Shown here: piece by piece, positions 8,534 to 60,882 of the stretch
Position numbering within the stretch: position 1 is the stretch's first letter
How the letters are laid out: each line of letters starts with the position of its first letter
From: a virus
Taxonomy: Duplodnaviria > Caudoviricetes
Reading direction: 5' to 3' (one strand)
Length of the DNA stretch: 64,000 nt
Virus record (IMG/VR): IMGVR_UViG_3300021255_003058
Location: 52,382-116,381 of that record
Position numbers and translations under genes: made by a program
Notes under the pieces: generated by a model
The model's input: only the letters and a program-made list of their open reading frames with translations
Database searches by the model: none
Told to the model about the DNA's origin: nothing

Positions 8534-8929
8534 TTATCTTGTGTATTTGTTAAAATAAATTGGTTTTGTTATTCTTTCATAATATCCTGATGGATCTGAA
8601 ACATGTTGTTCAAGTTGATGACATAATTTGTCCCATTCCTTAAATCGTTTATATTCCTCAAGATATTCATTAGGGCAATCAGGAACATACATATAAGTTC
8701 CCCATTTATGATAATCTTCACAATCTTTGCCTAAGACCATTGTATTATCAATATCACTAAACATACGATTATCTGAAAAATAACCCTTATTAGGCTTAGT
8801 ATCAAATTCAGGATAATATGTTATATTATATTGATGAATCTTGAAATTGGGAAAGCAACAGTAGTCACCGTCCCAAAAACAAAAATTCTCACAATTGATA
8901 CAACAATCTTTATGTGTAAAATCTTTCAT
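8534..8929 (-). CDS. Hypothetical Cys-rich protein
   Basis: 131-aa ORF with CCINCENFC. Confidence 0.65.
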   Translation of the reverse strand: MKDFTHKDCCINCENFCFWDGDYCCFPNFKIHQYNITYYPEFDTKPNKGYFSDNRMFSDIDNTMVLGKDCEDYHKWGTYMYVPDCPNEYLEEYKRFKEWDKLCHQLEQHVSDPSGYYERITKPIYFNKYTR

Positions 8930-9103: not shown

Positions 9104-9865
9104 TTATCCATAAATTTTATCAAAATATTGTAAAAGAATTTCTTTTATTAAATATGATGAATATGAATTTGATTCTTTACGCCAATGATTTTCGGAAATA
9201 CGTCCAAAATATATTTCTTTAATAGTTGTTGTATATGTTTTAAAATTTCGTTCTACTCTACAAAGTGTATAATAATGCATTTCATCCATACTTTTTGTTT
9301 TTCTAGAAGTTTCTGCGTTTTGGCAAACATGATTTTTAAAATTATTATCACCTACTGCAGATTTTACTTCCATATCATATGAAGGTGTTTCAATACATAC
9401 AACATCAGTTTCAACATTTTCATTTTCGCAAGATCTGAAATGATAATTACTTTGAGCTTTATTCATTTCATCTGCAAAAAATGCGTCAAAATATTTTCCA
9501 TAATGAGGCATATCTTTTTTATCAATTGGACCGAGAACACTTAAAATTTTATCATCAAATATTTTTGCAACATTATGAACAACATTAATTATTTGTTCTT
9601 TAGATAATACATTACTATAATATTTATCTATTTTTTCTCTTGTTAAAGAATCCATAGTCAGATCTTTTAACATATATCCTCTTGGAATTTTTCTATATGA
9701 CGGATCACTTTTTGTATTAATATTTTTAATTCTCAAGCAATCATCATATTCAATTAATCTATATGTATATTTATCTTCAGATGTTGGAACATAATATACA
9801 AATATTGTTTCTAAATTTGTATTATAACTTGTATAACATTCTGATGCGTAAATAATATTTTTCAT
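9104..9865 (-). CDS. Hypothetical protein
   Basis: 253-aa ORF. Confidence 0.7.
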   Translation of the reverse strand: MKNIIYASECYTSYNTNLETIFVYYVPTSEDKYTYRLIEYDDCLRIKNINTKSDPSYRKIPRGYMLKDLTMDSLTREKIDKYYSNVLSKEQIINVVHNVAKIFDDKILSVLGPIDKKDMPHYGKYFDAFFADEMNKAQSNYHFRSCENENVETDVVCIETPSYDMEVKSAVGDNNFKNHVCQNAETSRKTKSMDEMHYYTLCRVERNFKTYTTTIKEIYFGRISENHWRKESNSYSSYLIKEILLQYFDKIYG

Positions 9866-38946: not shown

Positions 38947-39909
38947 ATGAAATACCTTAGAAATTTAAATAATCATAATGATTATATTGCATTTATTGAG
39001 AGTACAGATTTTGCTGAAATACATGCAGAAAAAAATGCAGTGGTTAGTTATTGTAAAACGGAAGAACATGTTCATTATAATCCTTATATTCCACCATTAC
39101 CACAATTTTTAGATATTCTTTATTCAGATACAAATGGCAACTTAAGTTTTACATCAGAAGTACTTCCTGCATCAGAAGGTAAGACTCCTATTGGGCTTTG
39201 TGTTGTATCAACTGGATTCTTTGGTACTAATGAGAAAGCGCGTTGGATGTCACTTAAATATATGTACTGTGAAACTCCTGAAGCGGGCTCATTAACATTT
39301 CAAAATATGATGTGGGGTAATCATGGTACTGATATAAATACCATAGACAACATACAGACTGCATATAATGGAGGAGATATGTGGGGTTGTTTAACTGCTG
39401 ATTGGATAACAAATACATCTAGTAAGATTCCATCATTGTTTGATGCTAATGGTAACTGGAACTTAACTGAACTTGGAGATGTCAATCGATTTACTGCAAC
39501 AGATATAGATGGTAAGAACAAGACCGAAAAGATACTTGCAACTGCAACAGCACAATCTGATTGGATGACAGCTACAGCAATTACGAATAATAGTGGTGCA
39601 GGTTATGCACCAGCTGCTTGTTGTTGCGCAAGATATCATACATTAGGTACACAGTCAGGAGATTGGTATCTTGGTGCAGCAGGTGAAATGAGTATGATAA
39701 TTGTACAAAAACAACAAATTAATGCTAAGTTAACAGAGATAGCTAATGTATATGCTAATGATTGTATTCGTACGTTTGGTAATAATTACTATCAGACTTC
39801 TACTGAATATAATACGACTGACATATACAGGGCCAATGCTCAGCGTGGTAGTCTCGACAACACAGGCAAGAATGGCAATATGGGTGTTATTGCTATGCTT
39901 AGATATTAA
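38947..39909 (+). CDS. CLec-fold putative receptor-binding protein, paralog of the DGR target
   Basis: Shares RWMSLKYMY, Y.TLGT..GDWYL...GE, L.EI..VY..DC with 50432-51673. Confidence 0.8.
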   Translation: MKYLRNLNNHNDYIAFIESTDFAEIHAEKNAVVSYCKTEEHVHYNPYIPPLPQFLDILYSDTNGNLSFTSEVLPASEGKTPIGLCVVSTGFFGTNEKARWMSLKYMYCETPEAGSLTFQNMMWGNHGTDINTIDNIQTAYNGGDMWGCLTADWITNTSSKIPSLFDANGNWNLTELGDVNRFTATDIDGKNKTEKILATATAQSDWMTATAITNNSGAGYAPAACCCARYHTLGTQSGDWYLGAAGEMSMIIVQKQQINAKLTEIANVYANDCIRTFGNNYYQTSTEYNTTDIYRANAQRGSLDNTGKNGNMGVIAMLRY

Positions 39910-40004: not shown

Positions 40005-41216
40005 TTATCCTATTTGATTTTTAACATATTCTAAATCAACTGTTAACTCTTTAATATTTTGAGATGGTGCATCAAACATTGCTTTTGTCATTATATTTTC
40101 CATTGTTCCTCTAAGACCACGAGCACCAAGTTTGTTTTCTATTGTCTTATCAACAATATAATCTAAAGCTTCATCAGTAAAATTAAGTTCAACATTGTCC
40201 AATTCAAATATTCTCTTATATTGTTTTATTAAAGCATTCTTTGGTTCTTTTAATATTTTCAATAATGCTTCCTTGTCTAATTCATCTGTATATGTTATGA
40301 TTGGAAGACGTCCAATAATTTCTGGTATCAAGCCAAATGCTTTTAAGTCAAGTGGAGTCAGTTTTGACATAAATTCTTCATCTTTTGTATTTCCTTCAAC
40401 TTGTCTTTTTTCTACTGCATTAAATCCTACTGTATGCTGATTGCATCTTTGCGCTATTTTTTTCTCAATACCAACAAATGCTCCACCACATATAAATAAT
40501 ATGTTCTTTGTATCAATTTTTACTAATGGTGTATCTGGATGTTTTCGGCCACCTTTTGGTGGAATTGACACAATTGAGCCTTCAAGCAACTTTAAAAGAC
40601 CTTGTTGTACACCTTCACCACTTACGTCTCTTGTGATTGATGCGTTATCTCCTTTACGAGCAATCTTATCTATTTCATCAATAAATACAATTCCGCGTTC
40701 AGTCTTTTCAACATCATAGTCTGCAGCTTGATAAAGATTAACCAACACAGATTCTACATCTTCTCCAACATAGCCTGCCTGAGTCAATACTGTAGCATCT
40801 GCTATTGTACATGGAACATTAAGAAGCTTTGCAACAGTCTTTGCAATTAATGTATTATGTGATAATATATCATTTGTATAATATCTATGATTCGAATTTT
40901 CACTTAATTCAAAATCATACATATTTTCATAATCATCAAATATAACAATATCAACTACTTTTTCAACGCCATTAATTGTTTGTATAAAATTAGGTTTATC
41001 TTTAACAAATACTTCATTCATGTTTTCATCAAATACAATGTGAGTATCTGCACATTCTAACGTTAAACCTGATTCTGTTTCAATTTTATATTTATTATAT
41101 GGAATTGTTTCGTTCAATGAAACAATATCTACCCACCCAGTATCTGTTTCTATTTCAAAATTTTCAATATTCCAAGTATTAATAAATTTTCTATTTACTT
41201 GTTCTGATTTATTCAT
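40005..41216 (-). CDS. clpX: Split intein C-fragment (121 aa) fused to ClpX C-terminal part
   Basis: Intein ends [10 protein letters not shown] then [64 protein letters not shown]. Confidence 0.95.
40854..41216 (-). mobile_element. Atypical split intein IntC
   Basis: Block B LECADTH, block F MYDF, block G SHN followed by +1 Thr. Confidence 0.9.
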
Positions 41217-45725: not shown

Positions 45726-46388
45726 ATGAAATATTTAAAGAAATTTGATAATCATACTCAGTATGAAACCTATACTGCTTCCACTGAGTTCATTACGCCA
45801 AATGTATCACTGTGCGCTCAAGAGAATGAGGTGCATTACAACCCATACGTTGACCCTTACAATGGTCATGCATACGTTGACCTTGGCTTGCCAAGCGGAA
45901 CGAAGTGGGCAACGATGAATGTCGGTGCGACAAGTGAGACCGAATATGGTAACTACTATCAGTATGGCAAGGGTGCTGCTCAGTATGCAGCAACAAGTGG
46001 GCAATCTGATTATGCGGGTACTGAAAACCCACTTGCAACATCTGCTGACACTGCCGCGCAAGTATGGGGCGGTGGTTGGCATATGCCAACTGAAGCACAA
46101 ATGAAGGAGCTAACAGCTAATACCACTTATCAGTGGGTAACTGACTACAAGGGTAGTGGTATCAATGGCGGTTTGTTCACAGCTACCAACGGTAAGTCAG
46201 TGTTTTTTCCTGCTGCTGGCGGCTGGCGCGATGGTAGCCAGAGCAACGTAGGTAGTCGCGGTTACTGTTGGGGTTCTTCTCCTTATATTAGTAGCGCTTA
46301 CTACTTGAACTTTTTCAATGGTAACAAGGGCGTGAACTACGGCAGCGACCGTAAGTACGGCTTCTCGGTTCGTGGCGTGGTTGGATAA
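45726..46388 (+). CDS. Fib_succ_major/CLec-fold putative receptor-binding protein with VR-like C-terminus
   Basis: YVDLGLPSGTKWATMNVGA, WHMPT, FFPAAG, W.SSP, R.YGFSVR; GC visibly much higher than flanks. Confidence 0.85.
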   Translation: MKYLKKFDNHTQYETYTASTEFITPNVSLCAQENEVHYNPYVDPYNGHAYVDLGLPSGTKWATMNVGATSETEYGNYYQYGKGAAQYAATSGQSDYAGTENPLATSADTAAQVWGGGWHMPTEAQMKELTANTTYQWVTDYKGSGINGGLFTATNGKSVFFPAAGGWRDGSQSNVGSRGYCWGSSPYISSAYYLNFFNGNKGVNYGSDRKYGFSVRGVVG

Positions 46389-46764: not shown

Positions 46765-47520
46765 TTATAAAGTAATTTCACCCAATAACTTTATAAGAGG
46801 TGTATTGAGATATTTTGAATTCTTTTTATAATTATTTAATTCTTCTTTAACCTTAACTAATTTATCTTTCATCTCATCATGAAATCCTGCGTCACCAGTA
46901 ATACGTGGTTTCCAATCAAGTGTAAATTTTGCTAGCTTAGTTTCATCAATATCAATATACCAAAATCTATTACGTTCTGCAATTTCACGAACAGCAAAAT
47001 GCCCATATCCAAGGTCCTCTTGATATCTTATTTCTAAATCATACTTATCAAATAATTTTGACTGAGCACATAAAACAAAATCAAAAAATGCAAATTCATA
47101 TTGGTCAGGTTTGCTATTTCCGACTGTACCATGAATATCAAATTTTTTATGTGAATATGATGATTTTGCTGGATGGCATTTAAGATATTTCAAACATCTT
47201 TCAAATGCAAAATCAAGAATTTTATCGAATGTTATATTTGGAGTATTAACAAAATCATTTAATTCTTTATTTACATTCTCATCATATTCCCATTTTTGTG
47301 TTGACCAATAAACAGGATTATATGGATCATTTATACTATTAAAGAAGTCATATGCATTTTTCTCCCATATATGTCGTGGTGTAAAAAATAACTTTCCTTC
47401 TTCACTATCTTCATCTTTTGAATATCCAGCACACAATTCATCTTCCTCTTTATTTGGTTTATATAACTCAGGATTTGTCAAATAAAGTGATTTTCTAATT
47501 CCGTATTCGTAAAGTTTCAT
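46765..47520 (-). CDS. Hypothetical protein
   Basis: 251-aa ORF. Confidence 0.7.
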   Translation of the reverse strand: MKLYEYGIRKSLYLTNPELYKPNKEEDELCAGYSKDEDSEEGKLFFTPRHIWEKNAYDFFNSINDPYNPVYWSTQKWEYDENVNKELNDFVNTPNITFDKILDFAFERCLKYLKCHPAKSSYSHKKFDIHGTVGNSKPDQYEFAFFDFVLCAQSKLFDKYDLEIRYQEDLGYGHFAVREIAERNRFWYIDIDETKLAKFTLDWKPRITGDAGFHDEMKDKLVKVKEELNNYKKNSKYLNTPLIKLLGEITL

Positions 47521-47858
47521 AATTATATTTTTCTAAGTTGTTCAATTATTACTTTAAAATAAGCTCTATTTCCACTTGATACATATATATCATATTCCTT
47601 ATGACGTTCAATTGCATCTTTTATTGCATCTTCACGTTCATCAATTATATCATGATATTTTGATTTTCTTTTTTGATATACATAATAATGACAATCACCC
47701 CATGCCATATTATGACCCGTACCAACCCTTATAATCATTACTTAAAATCCTTTTAATTAATATAGTAATAATTAAAAAAATAATAAAAAGGATGATACTC
47801 ACTAAGAATATCACCCTTCAAATAATCTTATGAAATATATTAAAAATTTTTTAACGAA

Positions 47859-48461
47859 TTAAAGTCCTAAATTCAATACGCCTTCAACAACTGCTGATTG
47901 TGTTTGACCTGAAATAGATGTAGATACTTTATCATCTACATATTGTTTAACAGTCTTATCACCTAAACCAGCTAAACCAGCTTTAACAGTATCAACAAAT
48001 GTACCAGCAATACCTTCAGTATTATCTGGATTATTTAATTCATTTAATACATTTTGTAAATTTGTAATTGTTTGAGCTGAAGAATCAGAACCTAATACTT
48101 TATCAACCAAATCTTTTGCATATGCTTTAGCTCCATTAATAGTATCTGCAGAAGCTGCATCAGTACTTGCACCTATTACTTGTGATTTTGCTGTTGCTGC
48201 AGCTCCAGTAGCATCATAATTAGTAGCTAAACTATCGGCATATTTCTTAGCCCCATTAATAGTATTTGATGCTGCTGTATCATTAGTTGAATCACCAATT
48301 AATGTTGTTTGAGAATCAGATACTGCTTTTGCAACAGATCCTATTACATTTGCTGCACCTTCAAGCTTAGTTAATCTTAAATTAGATTCAGTGTCTTGTA
48401 TTTGGTAAGTAATACCGTCTTTTGCTTTAATGTCATGAATTACGTGTTCGCTGTAAGCCAT
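47859..48461 (-). CDS. Putative virion fibre/structural protein
   Basis: Ala/Thr-rich repeats IG.STD.A...TINGAK.YA x2. Confidence 0.55.
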   Translation of the reverse strand: MAYSEHVIHDIKAKDGITYQIQDTESNLRLTKLEGAANVIGSVAKAVSDSQTTLIGDSTNDTAASNTINGAKKYADSLATNYDATGAAATAKSQVIGASTDAASADTINGAKAYAKDLVDKVLGSDSSAQTITNLQNVLNELNNPDNTEGIAGTFVDTVKAGLAGLGDKTVKQYVDDKVSTSISGQTQSAVVEGVLNLGL

Positions 48462-48497
48462 AAATTATAATGAAATATAGTTATTAATTTAGAAGAT

Positions 48498-48659
48498 TTA
48501 TTCTTCATTTTGTTTTTCTCCTTTTATAAGTTCTCGTAATCCCTCTACATATTTTCCATTATAATTTTCTACTAATGATTCAATTAATTCTTTTACTTGT
48601 TCATCAGTATATTCTTTCTTATCTGAATTTTCATTAATATAATTTAATAAATTCTTCAT
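48498..48659 (-). CDS. Small acidic protein (53 aa, not in ORF track)
   Basis: MKNLLNYINENSDKKEYTDEQVKELIESLVENY... Confidence 0.6.
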   Translation of the reverse strand: MKNLLNYINENSDKKEYTDEQVKELIESLVENYNGKYVEGLRELIKGEKQNEE

Positions 48660-48668
48660 ATTATATAT

Positions 48669-48983
48669 TTATTTTATTTCGCTTAAATCTAATACTCCTC
48701 TATTTACGGAAACATTATCATAAGCAACTTGCTTTAACTTTTCAATATCAGATTCAATTTTTGTTAATCTGTTTAATATTTCATTAATTCTTTGATCATC
48801 CATATTGTTATTATAATCTGAAACATTTGCTGCACCACCTGGAGTATACCAGGGATTATCATAATATATATCTTCGTATCTTGTTAATCCAGTTGCTAAA
48901 TAAGTTCGATCTTCTTTGGATAATTGTTCAATTGCTTCCATTGAAAATCCCATCTTTAATAATCTTCCATCTATATGATTCAT
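48669..48983 (-). CDS. Hypothetical coiled-coil protein
   Basis: C-terminus IEKLKQVAYDNVSVNRGVLDLSE shared with neighbour. Confidence 0.7.
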   Translation of the reverse strand: MNHIDGRLLKMGFSMEAIEQLSKEDRTYLATGLTRYEDIYYDNPWYTPGGAANVSDYNNNMDDQRINEILNRLTKIESDIEKLKQVAYDNVSVNRGVLDLSEIK

Positions 48984-48984
48984 T

Positions 48985-49299
48985 TTAGTTTACTTCACTC
49001 AAATCTAATACTCCATTATCAACAGAAACTTCATCATATGCAACTTGTTTCAATGCTTCAATATCAGCTTCCAATAATTCTATCTTTTGTAATAATTCTG
49101 ATTTCTGTTGTTCTGTAAATATTATATTTTGTAAATGATCATAAATTTCTTGTATTGCATTACTATATGTATCTATTCCATTGTTTATTCTTGAATATTC
49201 TTCATCGGATATTTCAAAATATCTTTGTTCGATCATTTCATCAAGATTATCAACAATACGTTTTTTTATTATATATTCTGCTTTATTTACAGTTTTCAT
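48985..49299 (-). CDS. Hypothetical coiled-coil protein
   Basis: C-terminus IEALKQVAYDEVSVDNGVLDLSE. Confidence 0.7.
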   Translation of the reverse strand: MKTVNKAEYIIKKRIVDNLDEMIEQRYFEISDEEYSRINNGIDTYSNAIQEIYDHLQNIIFTEQQKSELLQKIELLEADIEALKQVAYDEVSVDNGVLDLSEVN

Positions 49300-49301
49300 A
49301 A

Positions 49302-49862
49302 TTATTCAATAAATGTATATATATCTGATGATTCTTTATATTCACAACTATTTGGAAATTCTTCAATGAATCTGATTAATTTCTGTTCGTCTGTTTGGTT
49401 TTCATCTTGTACAAACTCATAATCTCTTGCATATTTAATTGCTCTATTGAACATATATGTACTACCATATATTAATGATCCAAATCCAAAATATTCACTT
49501 GATTGTTCATTATCTTTATTAATATATCCAAAATACAATTTTGCATCATTTAATAATTCTGAATTATCGTAAGCTTTGAACATTGCATTTGGATTGATAA
49601 ATATTGAATAATCTCCTTGATTACTAATATATTTTTGAAGAATATCAATTTTATTTAATGGAATAATAGATAACTCATTATCAAATCTTACTTCAATTGT
49701 TATGTTGTTCTTATCATATTCATCATAAAAATTCATTCTTGAATCATTTGTTATTAATACAATTCTCTTTTGAACTTCAGGATAAAATGTCTTAACTGAT
49801 TTTAAGAATTGTGAAAAATATTCTATTGCATATCCTCCACACATATAATAAATAGTTATCAT
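49302..49862 (-). CDS. Possible degenerate GT6-like glycosyltransferase
   Basis: GGY.IEYFSQFLKSVKTFYP....IVLITND N-terminus, G..IYG, DE; DxD-equivalent not evident. Confidence 0.4.
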   Translation of the reverse strand: MITIYYMCGGYAIEYFSQFLKSVKTFYPEVQKRIVLITNDSRMNFYDEYDKNNITIEVRFDNELSIIPLNKIDILQKYISNQGDYSIFINPNAMFKAYDNSELLNDAKLYFGYINKDNEQSSEYFGFGSLIYGSTYMFNRAIKYARDYEFVQDENQTDEQKLIRFIEEFPNSCEYKESSDIYTFIE

Positions 49863-49950
49863 CTAATATAGTTAATTATTTATATAAAAATAATAAAATT
49901 CTACATAGATGATAACTATAAATATGAATAGACAAATTGATGTACTTGAG

Positions 49951-50132
49951 ATGTACTGCGAGATAAAAGCTCAACAGAAACTTAGGCATCATACTGCAGA
50001 AAAGCTAAAACAGTTAATTGGTTGTTCTTATTGTTGTTGTTGACGTTGCCATTGTTAGTGTTAACGTTCCATGCATTGTTCCAATTGTTCTCAGAAGCAG
50101 ACCAATAGTTTGCATTAGCTAAGCTGGACATA
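49951..50132 (-). repeat. DGR template repeat (TR)
   Basis: 182-nt non-coding copy of the target 3' end with 17 AAY triplets (reads ...NYWSASENNWNNAWNVNTNNGNVNNNNKNNQLTV...). Confidence 0.97.
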
Positions 50133-50345
50133 AAAAATCAACAGCATACGGAGAAACCTTAGATAAGATTCTGTTTTCAGGTACCATCTAATAAAATTTC
50201 GTAACGAGCTATTAAACATAACTTGTGTGGTACTCATTTCAAGTAGTCAAAATCAAAAAATCCAATCAAGCGTACCCAATTAGAAAATCTATTCAACAAT
50301 AAATATGATAAAGAAAGCTTTCAAAGATCGATTATTAAAATTTCA

Positions 50346-50369
50346 CGGTTTACTCCTAAGAGTAAACCG
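50346..50369. promoter_or_regulatory. DGR target-recognition hairpin/cruciform candidate
   Basis: Perfect 10-bp stem CGGTTTACTC-ctaa-GAGTAAACCG about 30 nt 3' of VR, absent after TR. Confidence 0.75.
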
Positions 50370-50400
50370 GAAGTCAGCTAATGATGCTGCCTTCAATGAA

Positions 50401-50585
50401 ATGTACTGCGAGATAAAAGCTCAACAGAAACTTAGGCATCATACTGCAGAAAAGCTAAAACAGTAAAAGGGTTGTCCTTAGTGAAGTAGCCGTAGACGAG
50501 GCCACTGAGAGTGCTAACGAACCATGCAAGGTACCAATTGATCTCAGAAGCAGACCAATAGCTTGCATTAGCTAAGCTGGACATA
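50401..50585 (-). repeat. DGR variable repeat (VR)
   Basis: 185 nt; differs from TR by 22 substitutions, all at TR adenines, plus one 3-nt insertion. Confidence 0.97.
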
Positions 50586-51673
50586 CAATCTTCAGGATAT
50601 ACTGAAGATATCTCAGCTAATCTTGCTCTTATATGTTTCAAATCAGGAATAATAAATGCTAACTCACCACAAGCAGGTAAATACCAATCACCGGCAGATG
50701 TACCTAATGTTCTATATTGTGAACAACAATAGAATGGTTTTAATTGTTCTAATCTAGTCTGATAGTCGCATTTTCCAACATATGTTACTGAACTAGTATC
50801 AATTGGAGACGCACTTGCATATTTTGAAACAATTTTATCTGTTGCATCCTTTCCATGAATTCTAGTTAAAGCATGTGTTGGATATGTAAATTCAGAAGGA
50901 TTTTCAGTCACAACCCATTTATTATCTTCAGTATATAATGATGGTAAAAATCTATTATTAGACACTGGATCACTATGCCATCCTCTTACATTATCTACAT
51001 AAAATAATCCTTCTGGTAATGGAGTTTTTGATCCTATTGTACCTGCTGTTATATAATAGTTATTAAATGCATCTGAAGGCAAATACGACCAGTCATATTG
51101 TTTTGATACACGTGTAGTATTTTGAAAATTAGCTTCTACATTAACACCATCAGAAAACGATAAATCTGGCCATGAATAATTAATATTTGTCCAATCTGCT
51201 TTATATCTTGATGTATTCAATTGTTCTTGAGTATAAGTAGATGTTTTGGGAGTATATACTGATGTTTCATCCCAAGTCATACCAACGTTAGTTAATGAAC
51301 CATTTTGTGCATTTTCTACAAATGGACGTGTGTCTGTTTCTGTATTAGACATATTGTCAAAATACATATATTTTAATGACATCCATCTACTATGTTCACC
51401 AAGACCTAAGAAGTTTTCTCCTATAACTCTTAATGCAATTGGTTTATATCCTTCACTTGGGTTTAATACATTATGAGTAATTCTTTTTTGTGTAGTATCA
51501 GATATTTTTACCCATAAAATATCATATAATCCATTATTTCTATTGAATATTACTTTTCTGTTATTATTTCCATCATAATTTTCAATTCTACAAACATTTG
51601 GAAGATTATAATTCCATAAAGCTTTGTCTGCTAAATAATCAGCATTTGTATCATACACTAAAAAGTTTTTCAT
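50432..51673 (-). CDS. DGR target protein (CLec-fold, putative receptor-binding/tail fibre)
   Basis: WYLPACGEL and YWSASE..AW motifs; VR occupies last 50 codons. Confidence 0.92.
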   Translation of the reverse strand: MKNFLVYDTNADYLADKALWNYNLPNVCRIENYDGNNNRKVIFNRNNGLYDILWVKISDTTQKRITHNVLNPSEGYKPIALRVIGENFLGLGEHSRWMSLKYMYFDNMSNTETDTRPFVENAQNGSLTNVGMTWDETSVYTPKTSTYTQEQLNTSRYKADWTNINYSWPDLSFSDGVNVEANFQNTTRVSKQYDWSYLPSDAFNNYYITAGTIGSKTPLPEGLFYVDNVRGWHSDPVSNNRFLPSLYTEDNKWVVTENPSEFTYPTHALTRIHGKDATDKIVSKYASASPIDTSSVTYVGKCDYQTRLEQLKPFYCCSQYRTLGTSAGDWYLPACGELAFIIPDLKHIRARLAEISSVYPEDCMSSLANASYWSASEINWYLAWFVSTLSGLVYGYFTKDNPFTVLAFLQYDA

Positions 51674-51685
51674 ATAATATTATAA

Positions 51686-52153
51686 TTATGATTCTAAATT
51701 TGTAACTCTATCATTTAAGTCATTTAATGCTGCTGCCCATGTTTCCTCAATATCTAATATTGCTTTATGTAATTTAGATATAGCAGAATACACAGTTTCT
51801 AATGCAACTGGAATTAATTGTGCATTTGTTCCTGTTGATGCTGCATAATTTGATGGTAATTTTAATGCATCAATAATATCGTCTTCAATTTGATTTAATG
51901 CTGCTGCCCAAGTTTCTTCATCTCCAACAATACCATTGTTTAATTTTTGTATTGCAGTTTGGAAATTATCGTTAGTTTGAGGTGAATTTAATTCTTGTAC
52001 CTTTGTTGGTGTTTGATAATTACTATCTAAAGATACTTGAACGTTTCCTAATGCAGTTCTTGCTGCAGTATCTTTAATACTATGTAAAGTATTCTGTTTT
52101 GTTTTTATTTGTTCAACTTCGTCAGCAATTGGAGTAATATTTACATTTGCCAT
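51686..52153 (-). CDS. Putative virion/fibre-associated protein with internal repeat
   Basis: AI.KL...I...EETWAAALN repeated twice. Confidence 0.6.
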   Translation of the reverse strand: MANVNITPIADEVEQIKTKQNTLHSIKDTAARTALGNVQVSLDSNYQTPTKVQELNSPQTNDNFQTAIQKLNNGIVGDEETWAAALNQIEDDIIDALKLPSNYAASTGTNAQLIPVALETVYSAISKLHKAILDIEETWAAALNDLNDRVTNLES

Positions 52154-52195
52154 AATTCAAATCCAAATATAAATTTATTTATTAAAAATAATTTT

Positions 52196-52565
52196 TTATG
52201 AATTTAATTTATCTATCCATAATGTAAGTTGTTCTTCAATTTTTTCCTAAATCTTTACACAATACATTATATTGTGCTTCATTAATTATCTTAAAATCAT
52301 CATATATAATTTTTAATTTAATTTCTAATAAGAACAGATTTTCTTTCAATTCATATGCATATTTCAATTTTATTTCTTTATCTTTATTATAATACGATAA
52401 TGACATTTTTGATATACATATAGATATTAATTCAAATAATTCTTTTCCTATAACAGGTTTCATATCATTACGCATATTTATATAATAAGGGGCATAATTA
52501 CAAGCCAATAAATGTAATGATCTATATATGTTTGTATCTAAAAATTTCTTACATTCGTATAACAT
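52196..52565 (-). CDS. avd: Avd-like DGR accessory protein (four-helix bundle), frameshifted near C-terminus
   Basis: IY...M.ND.K.VIG, L...LKI...KII...QY pattern; ORF stops at 52236 but removing one A from the A6 run gives LGKIEEQLTLWIDKLNS*. Confidence 0.75.
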
Positions 52566-52607
52566 AAATATTATTAATTATTGATATTTATTAAATAATA
52601 TATTAAA

Positions 52608-53927
52608 ATGTTTAATTATTTGGAGTCTGAAGATAAATTTTATTATGAATTTGTATCATATGAAGAATTATATAGAGCATATGTTGATTGTAAGAAAAGA
52701 AAAAGAATAACACATAATTGTGAAGCATTTGAGATTGATGAAATAAATAAGTTATATAATCTTTATGTTGAACTTAACACAATGACGTATAAAATTGGTA
52801 AGTCAACAACATTTATTTATCATGAGCCATTATCAAATCATTTTAGAGAAATATTTGCTGCTGATTTTAGAGATAGAATTATCCAACATTTATTAATCAA
52901 TAGAATGATAGATATTTTTGAAAATGATTTTATAGATCATACGTTTTCTTGTCGTAAAAACAAAGGTACATCTTTTGGAATTGAAACTTTATATAATGAT
53001 TTAAAAGAATATACAAATAATTTTACTGAAGATTGCATGATATATGGAGCAGATATTAAATCATTCTTTGCATCATTAAATAAAGACATTGTATTCAATC
53101 AATTAACAAATTTACTCATAACAAATAAAGATAAATTAGTTATTTATAACAAAGAAGAAATAACAAATTTAGATATAATATATACAAAATGGTTAATAAG
53201 AATTATATTGTATAATGATCCTCGTAAAGGATGTATATTCAAACAACCTAAATGGTATTGGAATTTTATATCAAATGACAAATCAGCATTTCATATTCCA
53301 TCAATATTATATCTTCCAGTTGGAAATATAACATCACAATTCTTTGCTAATCTTTATCTATCATTAATGGATAAAGTAATGAATGATAGAGGTTATTATG
53401 GAAGATATGTTGATGATACTTATAATTTAGTTAAATCATTAGAAGAATATCATTATGTTAAGTTTTTAATGAATAAAGAAGCAAATAAAGTTGGATTAAA
53501 AATACACCCAAATAAACAATATCTTCAAGATTATAAAAAAGGATTTAAATTTATTGGTAAATATATTAAAGAATATAGAATTTATATATTAAATAAAACA
53601 AAAGGAAAATTTTGGAAACGTGTAAAATATTTCTATGATGAATTTGAAAATAGGCAACAAATAACAATTAAAGATTTAGAATATATGGTTTCTTGTATTA
53701 ATTCATATCTTGGTCTATTGAAACATTATAAGACATATAATATTAGAAAGAAAATATTATCATCTCAATATATGACAGCATTAGGTCAATATATTTATGT
53801 TAATAAAAATTTAACAAAAGTGTCAATATTTGAGGATTATTTATGCAAAAGAACTCATAAGCATAAATATAAATCACAAAGATATTTATTTACTAAATTA
53901 CCAATTATAAATAAAGAATTGAAATAA
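52608..53927 (+). CDS. DGR-class reverse transcriptase
   Basis: REIFAADFRDRIIQH, FSCRKNKG, ADIKSFF, LPVGNITSQFFAN (DGR-type SQ), RYVDD, GLKIHPNK, GFKFIG. Confidence 0.96.
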   Translation: MFNYLESEDKFYYEFVSYEELYRAYVDCKKRKRITHNCEAFEIDEINKLYNLYVELNTMTYKIGKSTTFIYHEPLSNHFREIFAADFRDRIIQHLLINRMIDIFENDFIDHTFSCRKNKGTSFGIETLYNDLKEYTNNFTEDCMIYGADIKSFFASLNKDIVFNQLTNLLITNKDKLVIYNKEEITNLDIIYTKWLIRIILYNDPRKGCIFKQPKWYWNFISNDKSAFHIPSILYLPVGNITSQFFANLYLSLMDKVMNDRGYYGRYVDDTYNLVKSLEEYHYVKFLMNKEANKVGLKIHPNKQYLQDYKKGFKFIGKYIKEYRIYILNKTKGKFWKRVKYFYDEFENRQQITIKDLEYMVSCINSYLGLLKHYKTYNIRKKILSSQYMTALGQYIYVNKNLTKVSIFEDYLCKRTHKHKYKSQRYLFTKLPIINKELK

Positions 53928-53929
53928 AA

Positions 53930-53986
53930 TCTTGCACAGTTTATTGAAATTATTATTAAATAATATATCAAATAAACTATGCAAGA
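53930..53986. terminator. Long imperfect hairpin just after the RT stop
   Basis: TCTTGCA.AGTTTATT ... AATAAACT.TGCAAGA. Confidence 0.55.
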
Positions 53987-54182
53987 ATACAAAGTTATCA
54001 TAACAAATAATTTGAATGACTGTATTGATTATTTATTACAAATAAATCAAAAATATCCATTTATAAAATATTTGTATGTAAATATGACACAATGTATAGA
54101 ATAATATGTTCAAATATTAATAACTTTGATGAATTTATAGATAACTTCAATTATATTGATATTACTAAAGAAATTTTATAAT

Positions 54183-56062: not shown

Positions 56063-56088
56063 AAAAGCTGTACTTAAGTACAGCTTTT
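56063..56088 (-). terminator. Intrinsic terminator
   Basis: AAAAGCTGTAC-ttaa-GTACAGCTTTT. Confidence 0.75.
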
Positions 56089-56091
56089 ATT

Positions 56092-56649
56092 TTATTTCCA
56101 GTCATCTGGTATATTACTATCTTTATAATTTTTTTCTGTGGCATATTTAAGTAATTTCTGTAATGGACCAAAACTAAGGTTTGTACTTAATTTAGTACCA
56201 TCTGGGAACTTAAATTGTAACCAATGGCTATTTCCTCTTGGACTAATTCCACTAGATTCTCTTGTAGTTTGTCGAACACCACTAATAACAGGTTTATCCC
56301 AGTAAGTTTCAAATAATTTAGTAATTTCATTAAGTGCTTCATCAGTTACTATATTACGTTTGCCATCCCATTTACGTTGCTTTATATTATCGTTTTTAAA
56401 ATCAATACTACCCCAAGTGGCAATTATCAATGTAGCTTTAGGATTAATCTTATTACTATCAACACCTTTCATATATTCATTATAAGTATCCTGTAAATAA
56501 TCACTACCATTTTTTATATCTTTTTCAAAACGTTGCTGTATTGATTTTACAAGTTCACTATATAAATCTTTGCCAGGTATATTTTCAAATTTAGCAGCTT
56601 TTAATGATGGTTTAGATGATTCATAAATTATATCTTTTAAATCTTTCAT
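56092..56649 (-). CDS. Hypothetical protein (possible internal head protein)
   Basis: 185 aa, N-terminus MKDLKDIIYES. Confidence 0.7.
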   Translation of the reverse strand: MKDLKDIIYESSKPSLKAAKFENIPGKDLYSELVKSIQQRFEKDIKNGSDYLQDTYNEYMKGVDSNKINPKATLIIATWGSIDFKNDNIKQRKWDGKRNIVTDEALNEITKLFETYWDKPVISGVRQTTRESSGISPRGNSHWLQFKFPDGTKLSTNLSFGPLQKLLKYATEKNYKDSNIPDDWK

Positions 56650-56734
56650 AACTAATAAATATTTTTTATTTCTTATATATAAAAATAAATAAAAGATCTG
56701 TCTTTAATATAATTAAAAGATTTCATTTATAAAA

Positions 56735-57952: not shown

Positions 57953-59845
57953 TTAATACTTAAGCATATCTTTTCTTACATTAGAATCCAGTTTATTAAA
58001 CCATTTTCTAAGCATACTATCTGCTGCTTCATCTTTTTTGAAATATAAAAACTTAGGATCTTGATACATTTCTTTAGATTCTTTATCTGATAGACCACCA
58101 AGTCCTTTTACATATTTATGTGAATATCCCTTAAGTTTCTTCTCTGCTTCTTTAAATTCTTCCATTGTATAGAATTTCTTACAATCTTTTCCTTTACGAG
58201 ATATTACAATAGGTGATATATTTCGACAAACTATATTTTTCTCAAAAAGTTCAGGCCAGTTGTTAAAGAATAATAAAAGCAATGCAGCAATCTTGTCACC
58301 ATCTGGATCAGCATCAGTTGATATAACAATCTTACCGAAGTTTAAATCATTTATATCAAATTCTTTACCCCATCTAAGTCCAAGAACTGTTACAATATCA
58401 TTAAACACTTCATTCCTCATTATCTGTACTGGAGTCATACCATAGCAATTCAATGGTACACCTCTCATAATCAGACCTGCTTGTATCTCTGGATTTCTTC
58501 CACCTCTTAGACCGGACTTTGCAGAATCTCCCTCAAATATCCAAAGCTGTCGCTCATTCTTTTTTCGAGATGAGCAAGTAATATATTTGTCTGGACGTTT
58601 CAATCCTTTATTGGTTTCTCTATTTATTTTGCGAAGTGCTTTTTCATCTTCAGCTGCAGTCTTTTGTTTATACCAATCTAATACTAATTGTACTATTTCT
58701 GATTTTTGACACTTTTTCAAAAAATCATCAGGAATATTAAATTTAATATTTGGATCTTTATAAAAATTTTCAACAGGAACACTTAATTCTTCTTTTGTTT
58801 GACTTGTATATATAGGATTTGATATATCAAATATACCAAAAATTCCATATTTACCATCTATTGATTTATTAGTTAATTCTATTTTATGTTTCTTTTTTAA
58901 ATATTCAATTATAATATCTCCAATTGGTTTACGAACTGCTTTTATATGTGTTCCTTTTGAACACTCAGCACCATTTACAAATGCTACATCTATTCCGCAA
59001 TCAGGACATACCCAAATTTGTTTTTGATTATCTTTTAATGAAATTATAGTTTTTTTATCATAAAAATCAGAATATAAATCCATATATTCTTCAAATTTTT
59101 TAAATTTCCAATTAATTTTATTTTTTTCATCTTTTGTTTTTACAATAAAATTAATTGATAATCCTAAATTTGCAGCTGCTGCATCTATACATCTTTTATG
59201 TAAAATTTTTATAAAATCATTAGTTAATCCATATTTACTTTGTTCAAATTTATCAAAATCAATAAAAAATGTAGTTTTTGTATAATGTTCATTACATTTT
59301 TCTATTTTTGGTTCTGATTTACTATTCATATTATTAGCCCATTCAACTAATAATTTATTTTTTTTATCTGCAGATTCAATAATAAATTTTTTTGAAAATA
59401 TATTACTTAAAACAGAACCTAACCCATTTGTTCCTACTATATTTCTATCATCATTATCATCATAATTTGAAGAAGTTCTTAATTGTCCAAATATAAATTC
59501 AGGAACATATACTCCTGCTTCTTTATGTTTAACTATTGGAATTCCACCATTATCTTTAATAGTTATTGAATTATCATCTTTATTTATAATTACATCAATA
59601 TTATTTAATCCCATATTATCTTTGCGTCTATATTCATCACATGAATTTGATAATATTTCATCAAATAATTTTAACATAGCTGGTGAATATGTTAAACATT
59701 TCATCATCATTTTATTTTCATTTTCATTATATACTAATAATGATGTTTCTTCTTCTTTAATAGAACCAATATACATAGTAGGTCTATGTAAAATATGTTC
59801 TAATTCTGATAATGCAGTATATTTTTGTTCAATTGTTTTTTTCAT
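57953..59845 (-). CDS. Type IIA topoisomerase, ATPase/TOPRIM subunit (T4 gp39+60/GyrB-like)
   Basis: EHILHRPTMYIGS, FDEILSN, DNGGIP, TSSNY, GTNGLG, EGDSA, RGVPLN, TDADPDG, KGLG. Confidence 0.96.
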   Translation of the reverse strand: MKKTIEQKYTALSELEHILHRPTMYIGSIKEEETSLLVYNENENKMMMKCLTYSPAMLKLFDEILSNSCDEYRRKDNMGLNNIDVIINKDDNSITIKDNGGIPIVKHKEAGVYVPEFIFGQLRTSSNYDDNDDRNIVGTNGLGSVLSNIFSKKFIIESADKKNKLLVEWANNMNSKSEPKIEKCNEHYTKTTFFIDFDKFEQSKYGLTNDFIKILHKRCIDAAAANLGLSINFIVKTKDEKNKINWKFKKFEEYMDLYSDFYDKKTIISLKDNQKQIWVCPDCGIDVAFVNGAECSKGTHIKAVRKPIGDIIIEYLKKKHKIELTNKSIDGKYGIFGIFDISNPIYTSQTKEELSVPVENFYKDPNIKFNIPDDFLKKCQKSEIVQLVLDWYKQKTAAEDEKALRKINRETNKGLKRPDKYITCSSRKKNERQLWIFEGDSAKSGLRGGRNPEIQAGLIMRGVPLNCYGMTPVQIMRNEVFNDIVTVLGLRWGKEFDINDLNFGKIVISTDADPDGDKIAALLLLFFNNWPELFEKNIVCRNISPIVISRKGKDCKKFYTMEEFKEAEKKLKGYSHKYVKGLGGLSDKESKEMYQDPKFLYFKKDEAADSMLRKWFNKLDSNVRKDMLKY

Positions 59846-60882
59846 ATATTATTTAATTCTTCTATATTCCAAATTTCTATATAATTTAAATTATTTTGCT
59901 TTGCAATATTTCTTTTATTTACATCTCTTATTGTCCATGTTATTATAGCATTATTATAATATAAAGAATTTTTTTCTTTCCATTGATTTAATATAGATAT
60001 ATCATTAATATTATTTTCATCAAATGGATGACCACCATGTGACCAATGATAATTACATTCAATAAATAAATCTAATGAAGGTATATATAAATCACATTGA
60101 AATGGATATCTTTTTTTATCTTTATATTGAAATATTACATCAGGATATTTTTCTTTAATAATATTAAATGAATCTATTTCAATTTTTGATTTATTTAATG
60201 TATTATTTTTTCTTTTTGTTTCAATTCCTTTATCAATTGCATCTTTACAATTAGCCTTTAATTTACATTCTTTAGTTTTGTAATAACAATCAACTCCATA
60301 ATGTTCAATTAATGTTTTCTTAATTTTATCTTTTATAATATTTGATTGATTAGGATAAATTGTACCATATTTTTGTAATGATGTTTGATTAACATGTTCT
60401 TTCCAATGGGTTGATTTTGCAATATTATCAACATTATATTTTTCTAACATTGTTTCTATTGCTTTATCTTTAATTTTTTTATCACATAATGGAGAAAACC
60501 CTCCATATTTTTTAATGTTTGTATTTTTTTGTTTTTCTTTTATATTATATGATTGTGCTGGTGTGTATGTTCCATATCGAATTAATGATGTTTGATGAAA
60601 TTTATTTACTTTTAATATATTCATGCATTCATTACAACATGCACTTGGATAAAATCTAAATTTGATAGAATATTTTAACGGTTTACCACAATTATTACAT
60701 TTTGGTAAACTATCAATATTATGTTTTAATCTAAATAAACTTTCTTTACATTTATCATAAATGTCTTCTACAGAAAAATCATTAAATCTATTTAACAAAT
60801 AATTAATAATTTTTATATCTCTATTTTTCCATTTTTTTCTATTATTCGTTTCACAATATTTTATAACATCTTCATCAGACAT
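59842..60882 (-). CDS. Putative free-standing homing endonuclease (KYG repeats plus PD-(D/E)xK/Vsr-like domain)
   Basis: CNNC..CC zinc motif, repeated K.T...KYG, C-terminal SKIE...CDLYIP..DLFIECN.HWSH. Confidence 0.7.
   Translation of the reverse strand: MSDEDVIKYCETNNRKKWKNRDIKIINYLLNRFNDFSVEDIYDKCKESLFRLKHNIDSLPKCNNCGKPLKYSIKFRFYPSACCNECMNILKVNKFHQTSLIRYGTYTPAQSYNIKEKQKNTNIKKYGGFSPLCDKKIKDKAIETMLEKYNVDNIAKSTHWKEHVNQTSLQKYGTIYPNQSNIIKDKIKKTLIEHYGVDCYYKTKECKLKANCKDAIDKGIETKRKNNTLNKSKIEIDSFNIIKEKYPDVIFQYKDKKRYPFQCDLYIPSLDLFIECNYHWSHGGHPFDENNINDISILNQWKEKNSLYYNNAIITWTIRDVNKRNIAKQNNLNYIEIWNIEELNNI

Follow-up and report, generated by a model that had tools for sequence, protein, structure and literature searches.

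The terminal 64 kb of a 116-kb viral contig (IMG/VR record IMGVR_UViG_3300021255_003058, positions 52,382 to 116,381; this whole stretch of 64,000 nucleotides is referred to below as the window) carries what is very probably a diversity-generating retroelement (DGR) of the functional type, working by the mechanism proposed below, in the genome of a jumbo phage. A DGR is a reverse-transcriptase system in which the adenines of an RNA template are miscopied. The element uses both strands of the window. The reverse transcriptase (RT) gene (52608-53927, 439 aa) is on the plus strand, and the accessory gene avd (52196-52565), a nested open reading frame (ORF) of 155 aa (51686-52153), the 413-aa target gene (50432-51673) with the variable repeat (VR, 50397-50585) at its 3' end, a hairpin (50346-50369) and the non-coding template repeat (TR, 49947-50132) follow one another on the minus strand. 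The avd and RT genes are arranged head-to-head, their starts separated by a divergent spacer of 42 bp (52566-52607), the end of the VR homology is ~265-270 nt from the start of the TR, and the TR is 2.5 kb from the RT. An earlier reading made from the letters alone (the sequence-only reading) had placed the elements, their strands and the 42-bp gap in just this way, and the ORF list and repeat search agree with it.

The evidence that carries the identification is the pattern of differences between the two repeats. A repeat search returned direct-repeat copies at 49947-50135 (TR) and 50397-50588 (VR), both on the minus strand, and in the minus-strand alignment 22 substitutions separate the TR from the VR, all of them at TR adenines (12 to T, 5 to G and 5 to C in the VR). 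Given that 32% of the TR is A, the probability of obtaining 22/22 at adenines by chance is ~1.5e-11. The substituted positions of the VR span 50465-50562, corresponding to a mutagenised span of 50015-50109 in the TR; 20 of the 22 substitutions fall in codon position 1 or 2, and the TR holds 17 AAY codons (Y being C or T) in the VR frame. The VR covers the final 49-50 codons of the target, and the homology is perfect to 31 nt beyond the stop codon, after which a C/T mismatch is found (49950/50400). The number and placement of the substitutions, the 17 AAY codons and the extension past the stop are all as the sequence-only reading gave them.

The final 68 nt of the repeat contain 13 adenines, none of which is changed. 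This unmutated 3' tract is common to the TR (49947-50014) and the VR (50397-50464), with a single C/T difference near its end, and resembles the IMH* and initiation of mutagenic homing (IMH) sites of a TR and VR, respectively. The VR has one codon more than the TR as the result of a 3-nt indel at 50484-50486, within an AAC AAC AAC AAT run, and the additional codon has the NNC form expected for a mutagenised AAC. Because close relatives (P0121, P0122, P0299 and the L004 contig described next) match the TR length of the window, the window VR has gained a codon and the TR has lost none; RT slippage on the AAC run would account for the gain. The flanks of the TR showed no similarity to the 5' end of the RT or to the region downstream of avd.

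A metagenome scan gave two loci with related elements, L004 and L003. L004 is an independent metagenome contig of 46 kb that aligns collinearly with the window, the two cassettes being 94.5% identical. Its genes stand in the same order, avd and RT are again 42 bp apart, and avd is intact (122 aa). The TRs of the two phages differ at 2 of 186 nt, both non-adenine, and at both of these sites each phage's VR has the base of its own TR; TR and VR are thus evolving in concert, as expected from TR-to-VR transfer. Against the L004 TR, the L004 VR shows 20 A-to-N substitutions and a single T-to-G (20/21 at A). When the window VR is compared with that of L004, 32 sites disagree, and 29 of these are TR adenines. 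In total, five VR alleles were found among close relatives, the proteins concerned (the window target, P0299 from L004, P0121, P0122 and P0124) differing in residues exactly at the TR Asn codons. Over the first 364 residues, P0121, P0301 and P0299 are 98%, 96% and 90% identical to the window target, respectively. Since close relatives carry other VR alleles, the element has been active in this lineage, and the pattern of mutagenic retrohoming, a VR that varies beside a TR that stays constant, is seen among natural relatives.

The RT itself matches Pfam RVT_1 (4e-14) and phrog_1423 (4e-56), and its closest solved structure is the DGR RT of Bordetella phage BPP-1 (bRT; 8ub7_A, E 1.3e-20), with group II and retron RTs following at ~1e-8. 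The catalytic YVDD is present, and LPVGNITSQFFANLY aligned with bRT IPIGSLTSQLFANVY, the motif reading LPVGNITSQ in the window RT and IGSLTSQ in bRT. Assignment to the DGR clade was made by closest structure and motifs. A tblastn search of GenBank phages with the RT gave best matches that include Bacteroides phages F1, F2 and F4, Bordetella phages and the archaeal virus ANMV-1. The RT is the only one on the whole contig. Scans of IMG/VR with the RT, with the target and with the RT alignment returned no relatives, and the cassette had no blastn match among GenBank phages.

The avd sequence had no Pfam, NCBIfam or PHROG match, and a profile built from the Avd alignment found no relative in the PDB by sequence. 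An AlphaFold2 (AF2) model of the alignment of intact homologues (mean predicted local distance difference test score, pLDDT, 89.7) is a four-helix bundle, for which the top Foldseek matches were 2gsc, 4dwl (Bordetella phage Avd; template-modelling score, TM, 0.79-0.90; root-mean-square deviation 1.5 Å) and 8ub7_B; the Avd chains of the DGR ribonucleoprotein 8ub7/8ube were among the best structural matches. Between the window and L004 the ratio of nonsynonymous to synonymous substitution rates (dN/dS) is 0.03 for avd (codons 1-108) and 0.07 for the RT, and both genes have therefore been under strong purifying selection. Taken together, the adenine pattern, the DGR-type RT and the Avd fold bear out the sequence-only identification of the element as a DGR.

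The target comprises an N-terminal region of ~320 aa and a C-terminal lectin domain of Lcl_C/DUF1566 type. The window's own copy had no significant family match (its scores were below E = 1); Pfam Lcl_C was detected in 5 of 8 close homologues, at best with 4.5e-7 and under the gathering score. A profile search of 1.8 billion representatives yielded 1480 relatives, and among the distant ones sampled Lcl_C exceeded the Pfam cut-off (84 and 75 bits), often in fusion with BspA-type leucine-rich repeats. An AF2 model of the target failed (pLDDT 33), and no model of it exists in the ESM Atlas. The lectin-type head suggests a host-recognition or receptor-binding protein. The sequence-only reading had inferred the receptor-binding role; the target matched no tail or virion family and its gene lies among replication genes, so that this role stays a suggestion. 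Two further genes in the window carry a similar head. The 320-aa product of 38947-39909 (plus strand) is a paralogue of the target (BLASTP 6e-22), with a common RWMSLKYMY N-terminal motif and a GDWYL lectin head, and this contig holds no TR that matches it. The third gene with a lectin head is small (220 aa; 45726-46388, plus strand) and weakly matches Lcl_C (0.0015) and Fib_succ_major (0.0021).

The second locus, L003 (JAEEGL011572622.1), comes from a more distant relative in the same phage group with a related jumbo-phage backbone. It holds a complete DGR with an RT of the same lineage (54% aa identity), an Avd of the same family, an Lcl_C target paralogous to that of the window and adenine-specific TR/VR differences (16 A-to-N, 16/17), and its VR, like that of the window, is followed by hairpins. 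Its layout is different: avd, TR and RT are on one strand with a convergent target, so that the TR and VR form inverted repeats flanking the RT. The L003 element also lies at another site in the genome, adjoining the orthologue of the window gene 40005-41216, and its target is the orthologue of the lectin-head paralogue 38947-39909. L003 lacks the 6.4-kb island (47759-54173) that holds the window DGR between the topoisomerase II medium-subunit gene and gene 46765-47520, and in L003 (1-1256) the flanks of the island abut. Apart from the DGR, it contains ORFs of 200 aa, 53 aa and 186 aa, the last with a weak glycosyltransferase-6 match, and two paralogous 104-aa ORFs; the latter are in tandem (48669-48983 and 48985-49299, minus strand) and have a common C-terminal motif, LKQVAYD.VSV..GVLDLSE. 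One DGR lineage thus occupies different sites, in different layouts and with paralogous targets, in related jumbo phages. In L003, an 87-nt direct repeat (8699-8785 and 9245-9331, 89% identical) duplicates the 3' end of the 40005-41216 orthologue and brackets a 146-aa ORF directly upstream of avd-TR-RT; it may be the footprint of a cassette insertion.

The strand of the adenines constrains how the window element can be expressed. All TR/VR mismatches are at minus-strand adenines, and by the DGR adenine rule the TR RNA is therefore minus-sense; it follows that it is not part of the plus-strand RT transcript and that TR and RT are transcribed separately, in agreement with the separate transcripts proposed by the sequence-only reading. 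From this we infer the transcript structure and action in trans. A long leftward minus-strand unit would probably comprise avd, the 155-aa ORF, the target, the hairpin and the TR, with the RT transcribed divergently from a promoter in or beside the 42-bp spacer. Between 52565 and 46765, every ORF of 120 aa or more is on the minus strand, and a promoter and terminator scan that included the spacer gave nothing above chance in this AT-rich DNA. RT and Avd made from separate mRNAs would then associate in trans with the RNA that contains the TR and copy it into complementary DNA (cDNA) with random nucleotides opposite adenines, and the cDNA would replace the VR up to the IMH-like boundary next to the hairpin. 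As a predicted outcome, the ligand-binding face of the Lcl_C/DUF1566 lectin-type domain would have as many as 17 Asn codons rewritten.

Several observations weigh against a DGR that works in this way. There is no GC-rich IMH, and a single C/T close to the end is all that distinguishes IMH from IMH*; the VR is one codon longer than the TR; avd is identified by its fold alone, without a sequence-family match; and the comparison of alleles is one among natural relatives. In addition, avd is shortened by a frameshift in this contig. An additional A (+1) in an A6 run near 52240 ends the ORF (52236-52565) at 109 aa and removes the last 13 residues, and the shifted frame (52196-52243) encodes KIEEQLTLWIDKLNS, the conserved C-terminus of avd homologues; the window reads GGAAAAAATTGA where L004 and L003, in both of which the gene is intact, read GGTAAAATTGAA. 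Neither this frameshift nor the extra VR codon had been part of the finding in the sequence-only reading. We also considered a read-through code, with TGA or TAG as sense, and it does not rescue the gene, the homologous C-terminus being in the +1 frame. The DGR may thus be switched off or weakened in this phage, unless the extra A is a sequencing error. A stronger form of this explanation, which we regard as possible and rather less than probable, holds that the element was recently active and is now frozen, the frameshift having disabled retrohoming and left the VR, with its extra codon, fixed. The deleted residues belong to helix 4 of avd and are kept in all 7 homologues (122-123 aa), the frameshift is the sole frame-breaking indel within a cassette gene relative to L004, and a dN/dS of 0.03 implies that any loss would be very recent. 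On the other hand, the gain of one A in an A5/A6 run could have arisen in assembly, and the RT, TR and hairpin are all intact, with no other decay visible.

Two further explanations dispense with an unusual DGR altogether. The TR and VR are direct repeats 450 bp apart, and could be an ordinary duplication or a gene-conversion tract, the TR being a pseudogene copy that happens to lie beside an unrelated RT. One relative of the target, P0301 (ENA, 5.7-kb contig), is of the kind that such an origin would produce: its C-terminal 49 residues are the exact TR-encoded peptide with every TR Asn kept, as a recombination event or assembly join between the repeats would give. P0301 could be a product of unmutated homing or recombination, or an assembly path that jumps from VR to TR. 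Duplication does not account for differences confined to the adenines of one copy and one strand (22/22 in the window, 20/21 in L004 and 16/17 in L003), for a TR that is near-invariant between phages whose VRs differ at 32 sites, or for the presence of an RT and an Avd-fold gene of DGR type; we consider it very improbable, and effectively refuted by the recurrence of the strand-specific adenine pattern in three independent elements. Hypervariable regions and repeats can also mislead assemblers, and the odd layout might accordingly be a chimera or an inversion artefact of one contig. We give this next to no credence, because the independent L004 is collinear, with the same order and spacing down to the 42-bp avd-RT gap, and a 245-kb contig is on record with identical RT and target proteins. 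The reading that we retain is that of a DGR with separately transcribed TR and RT.

Three smaller features of the cassette were examined alongside the core genes. The hairpin (50346-50369, minus strand) has a 10-bp stem, CGGTTTACTC/GAGTAAACCG, with a TTAG loop, and lies 27 nt downstream of the VR homology. It folds as DNA at -17.5 kcal/mol (z = -8.2 relative to shuffles), its stem is conserved in L004, and the L003 VR is followed by different, equally strong hairpins (z = -7.1); a fold search found no comparable hairpin after the TR. Upstream of the TR is a 17-nt motif, GAAATGAGTACCACACA (50224-50240, minus strand), that also precedes the L003 TR, with 17 of 18 nt matching L003 9745-9762 (pairwise E 1.7e-4). 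Minimum free energy and centroid folds both pair 50235-50250 with the 3' edge of the TR, with a fold energy that is non-significant, and RNA folds of the TR region were no more stable than shuffles (z = +0.5 and +0.9). With three sequences compared, it is possible that the motif is part of a TR RNA scaffold, and we offer this as a lead only. The 155-aa ORF between avd and the target has the internal repeat EETWAAALN, present twice, and no family match; it is kept in L004 with a dN/dS of 0.29. A role as a conserved accessory gene was ruled out by the absence of a homologue beside the L003 DGR. Having neither an L003 homologue nor a family, it fits the nested 'X' ORFs of Wu et al. (2018).

A broader reading can be built on these features, and we put it forward as an improbable one: a loose-module DGR in a Lak-related lineage, in which an RT-Avd complex transcribed apart from the TR would recognise, in trans, a stand-alone TR RNA scaffold (conserved 5' motif GAAATGAGTACYACACA and a long-range stem closing the TR), entire cassettes would shift from one paralogous lectin-head gene to another in different phages (50432-51673 in the window, the orthologue of 38947-39909 in L003), and the A run of avd would act as a slippage-prone on/off switch.

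The phage that carries the element has a jumbo-sized genome of about 245-300 kb, since CheckV estimates the completeness of the 116-kb contig at 44% and the 245-kb contig encodes the very same RT and target proteins; an RT of 78% identity is present on a 303-kb contig. The large phage of the sequence-only reading is thereby supported. That reading also called the phage T4-like. The neighbours of the DGR are indeed replication genes of T4 type (both topoisomerase II subunits and UvsX), together with a NAD-dependent ligase and a sigma factor, but the nearest recorded phages are the Prevotella Lak megaphages and not T4 proper, the large subunits of topoisomerase II being 51% identical at the aa level. 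No homologue of the window RT is present in Lak-A1. A search of the contig for the Gp23 family gave no match, and neither did its control. The genome is 27% GC. Within 56087-56734, a 185-aa ORF (56092-56649) lies between the topoisomerase II subunit genes and is absent from L004, and a homing-endonuclease-like gene (59842-60882) adjoins the topoisomerase large subunit, which suggests mobile insertions around the topoisomerase genes. Across the whole window, stop-to-stop ORFs of at least 120 aa end in TAA (56), TGA (10) or TAG (2), and with TGA taken as sense, the ORFs of at least 100 aa add up to 25,400 aa in place of 19,000 aa; the DGR genes are intact under code 11.

The sequence-only reading had presented the architecture as novel, and in this it went too far. 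Wu et al. (2018; PMC5758913), who catalogued 48 architectures, reported that TR and RT can be on different strands and concluded that such DGRs act in trans. They further described unrelated ORFs ('X') nested between the target and the core, which they regarded as unrelated to DGR function, and TR/VR indels in 7% of DGRs, 74% of these adjacent to AAC, with 3-nt indels among those at AAC runs, and explained by RT slippage; 14% of their DGRs have targets of DUF1566 type. A TR/VR orientation opposite to the RT is called 'rare' in the MyDGR paper (PMC6602519), where it is nevertheless known. DGRs have been described on phages thought lytic (PMC7981956), and very large automated catalogues exist for the DGRs of gut phages (PMC8241571, PMC12636319). 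Each unusual feature, taken singly, is thus already documented. In 224 jumbo phages surveyed in 2021, there were no lectin domains of the FGS type that error-prone RTs diversify.

The element leaves the present understanding of DGRs unchanged. What it adds is a clean, population-supported DGR in a ~250-300-kb jumbo phage related to the Lak megaphages, a host type that is among the less well covered aspects of DGRs. Because its RT and TR cannot share a transcript, it constitutes a natural test of a fully in-trans DGR RNA, a question of use for DGR engineering, and together with L003 it forms a small natural system for the study of cassette movement and retargeting.

Among known systems, the window element is most readily compared with the prototype, the mtd-avd-TR-brt cassette of BPP-1. 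The window RT has bRT as its closest solved structure and carries the bRT motif, and the four-helix bundle of Avd matches as well. In both systems the target has a lectin fold and bears the VR at its 3' end, the VR departs from the TR by A-to-N changes, the 3' part of the homology is unmutated, and a hairpin follows the VR. In the window, by contrast, the RT is encoded on the other strand and lies 2.5 kb away from the TR; the canonical arrangement, with all parts co-oriented and the TR directly upstream of the RT, is not found, the RT alone being on the plus strand. Furthermore, the TR comes after the target instead of after avd, avd and the target are separated by an unrelated ORF, the head of the target is of Lcl_C/DUF1566 type and not Mtd, there is no GC-rich IMH, the RT is 111 aa longer than bRT, and the host is a ~250-kb phage as opposed to a temperate phage of 42 kb. 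The Lak megaphages (MK250015 and others), which are the closest phages by the topoisomerase II large subunit, have genomes of ~540-550 kb compared with the ~245-300 kb found here. Within the scheme of Wu et al. (2018) the element belongs to architecture family B (TR and RT with avd as the sole accessory gene) and is nearest to B3, 'TR-(avd)-RT', with which it shares an avd inverted relative to the RT and from which it differs in that TR, target and avd are all inverted with respect to the RT and the TR is distal to the target; the target falls in category 'd'/CLec2 (DUF1566, Fib_succ_major), the type of the Legionella DGR. The window thus holds a further well-supported DGR whose layout is rare, and no new kind of system.

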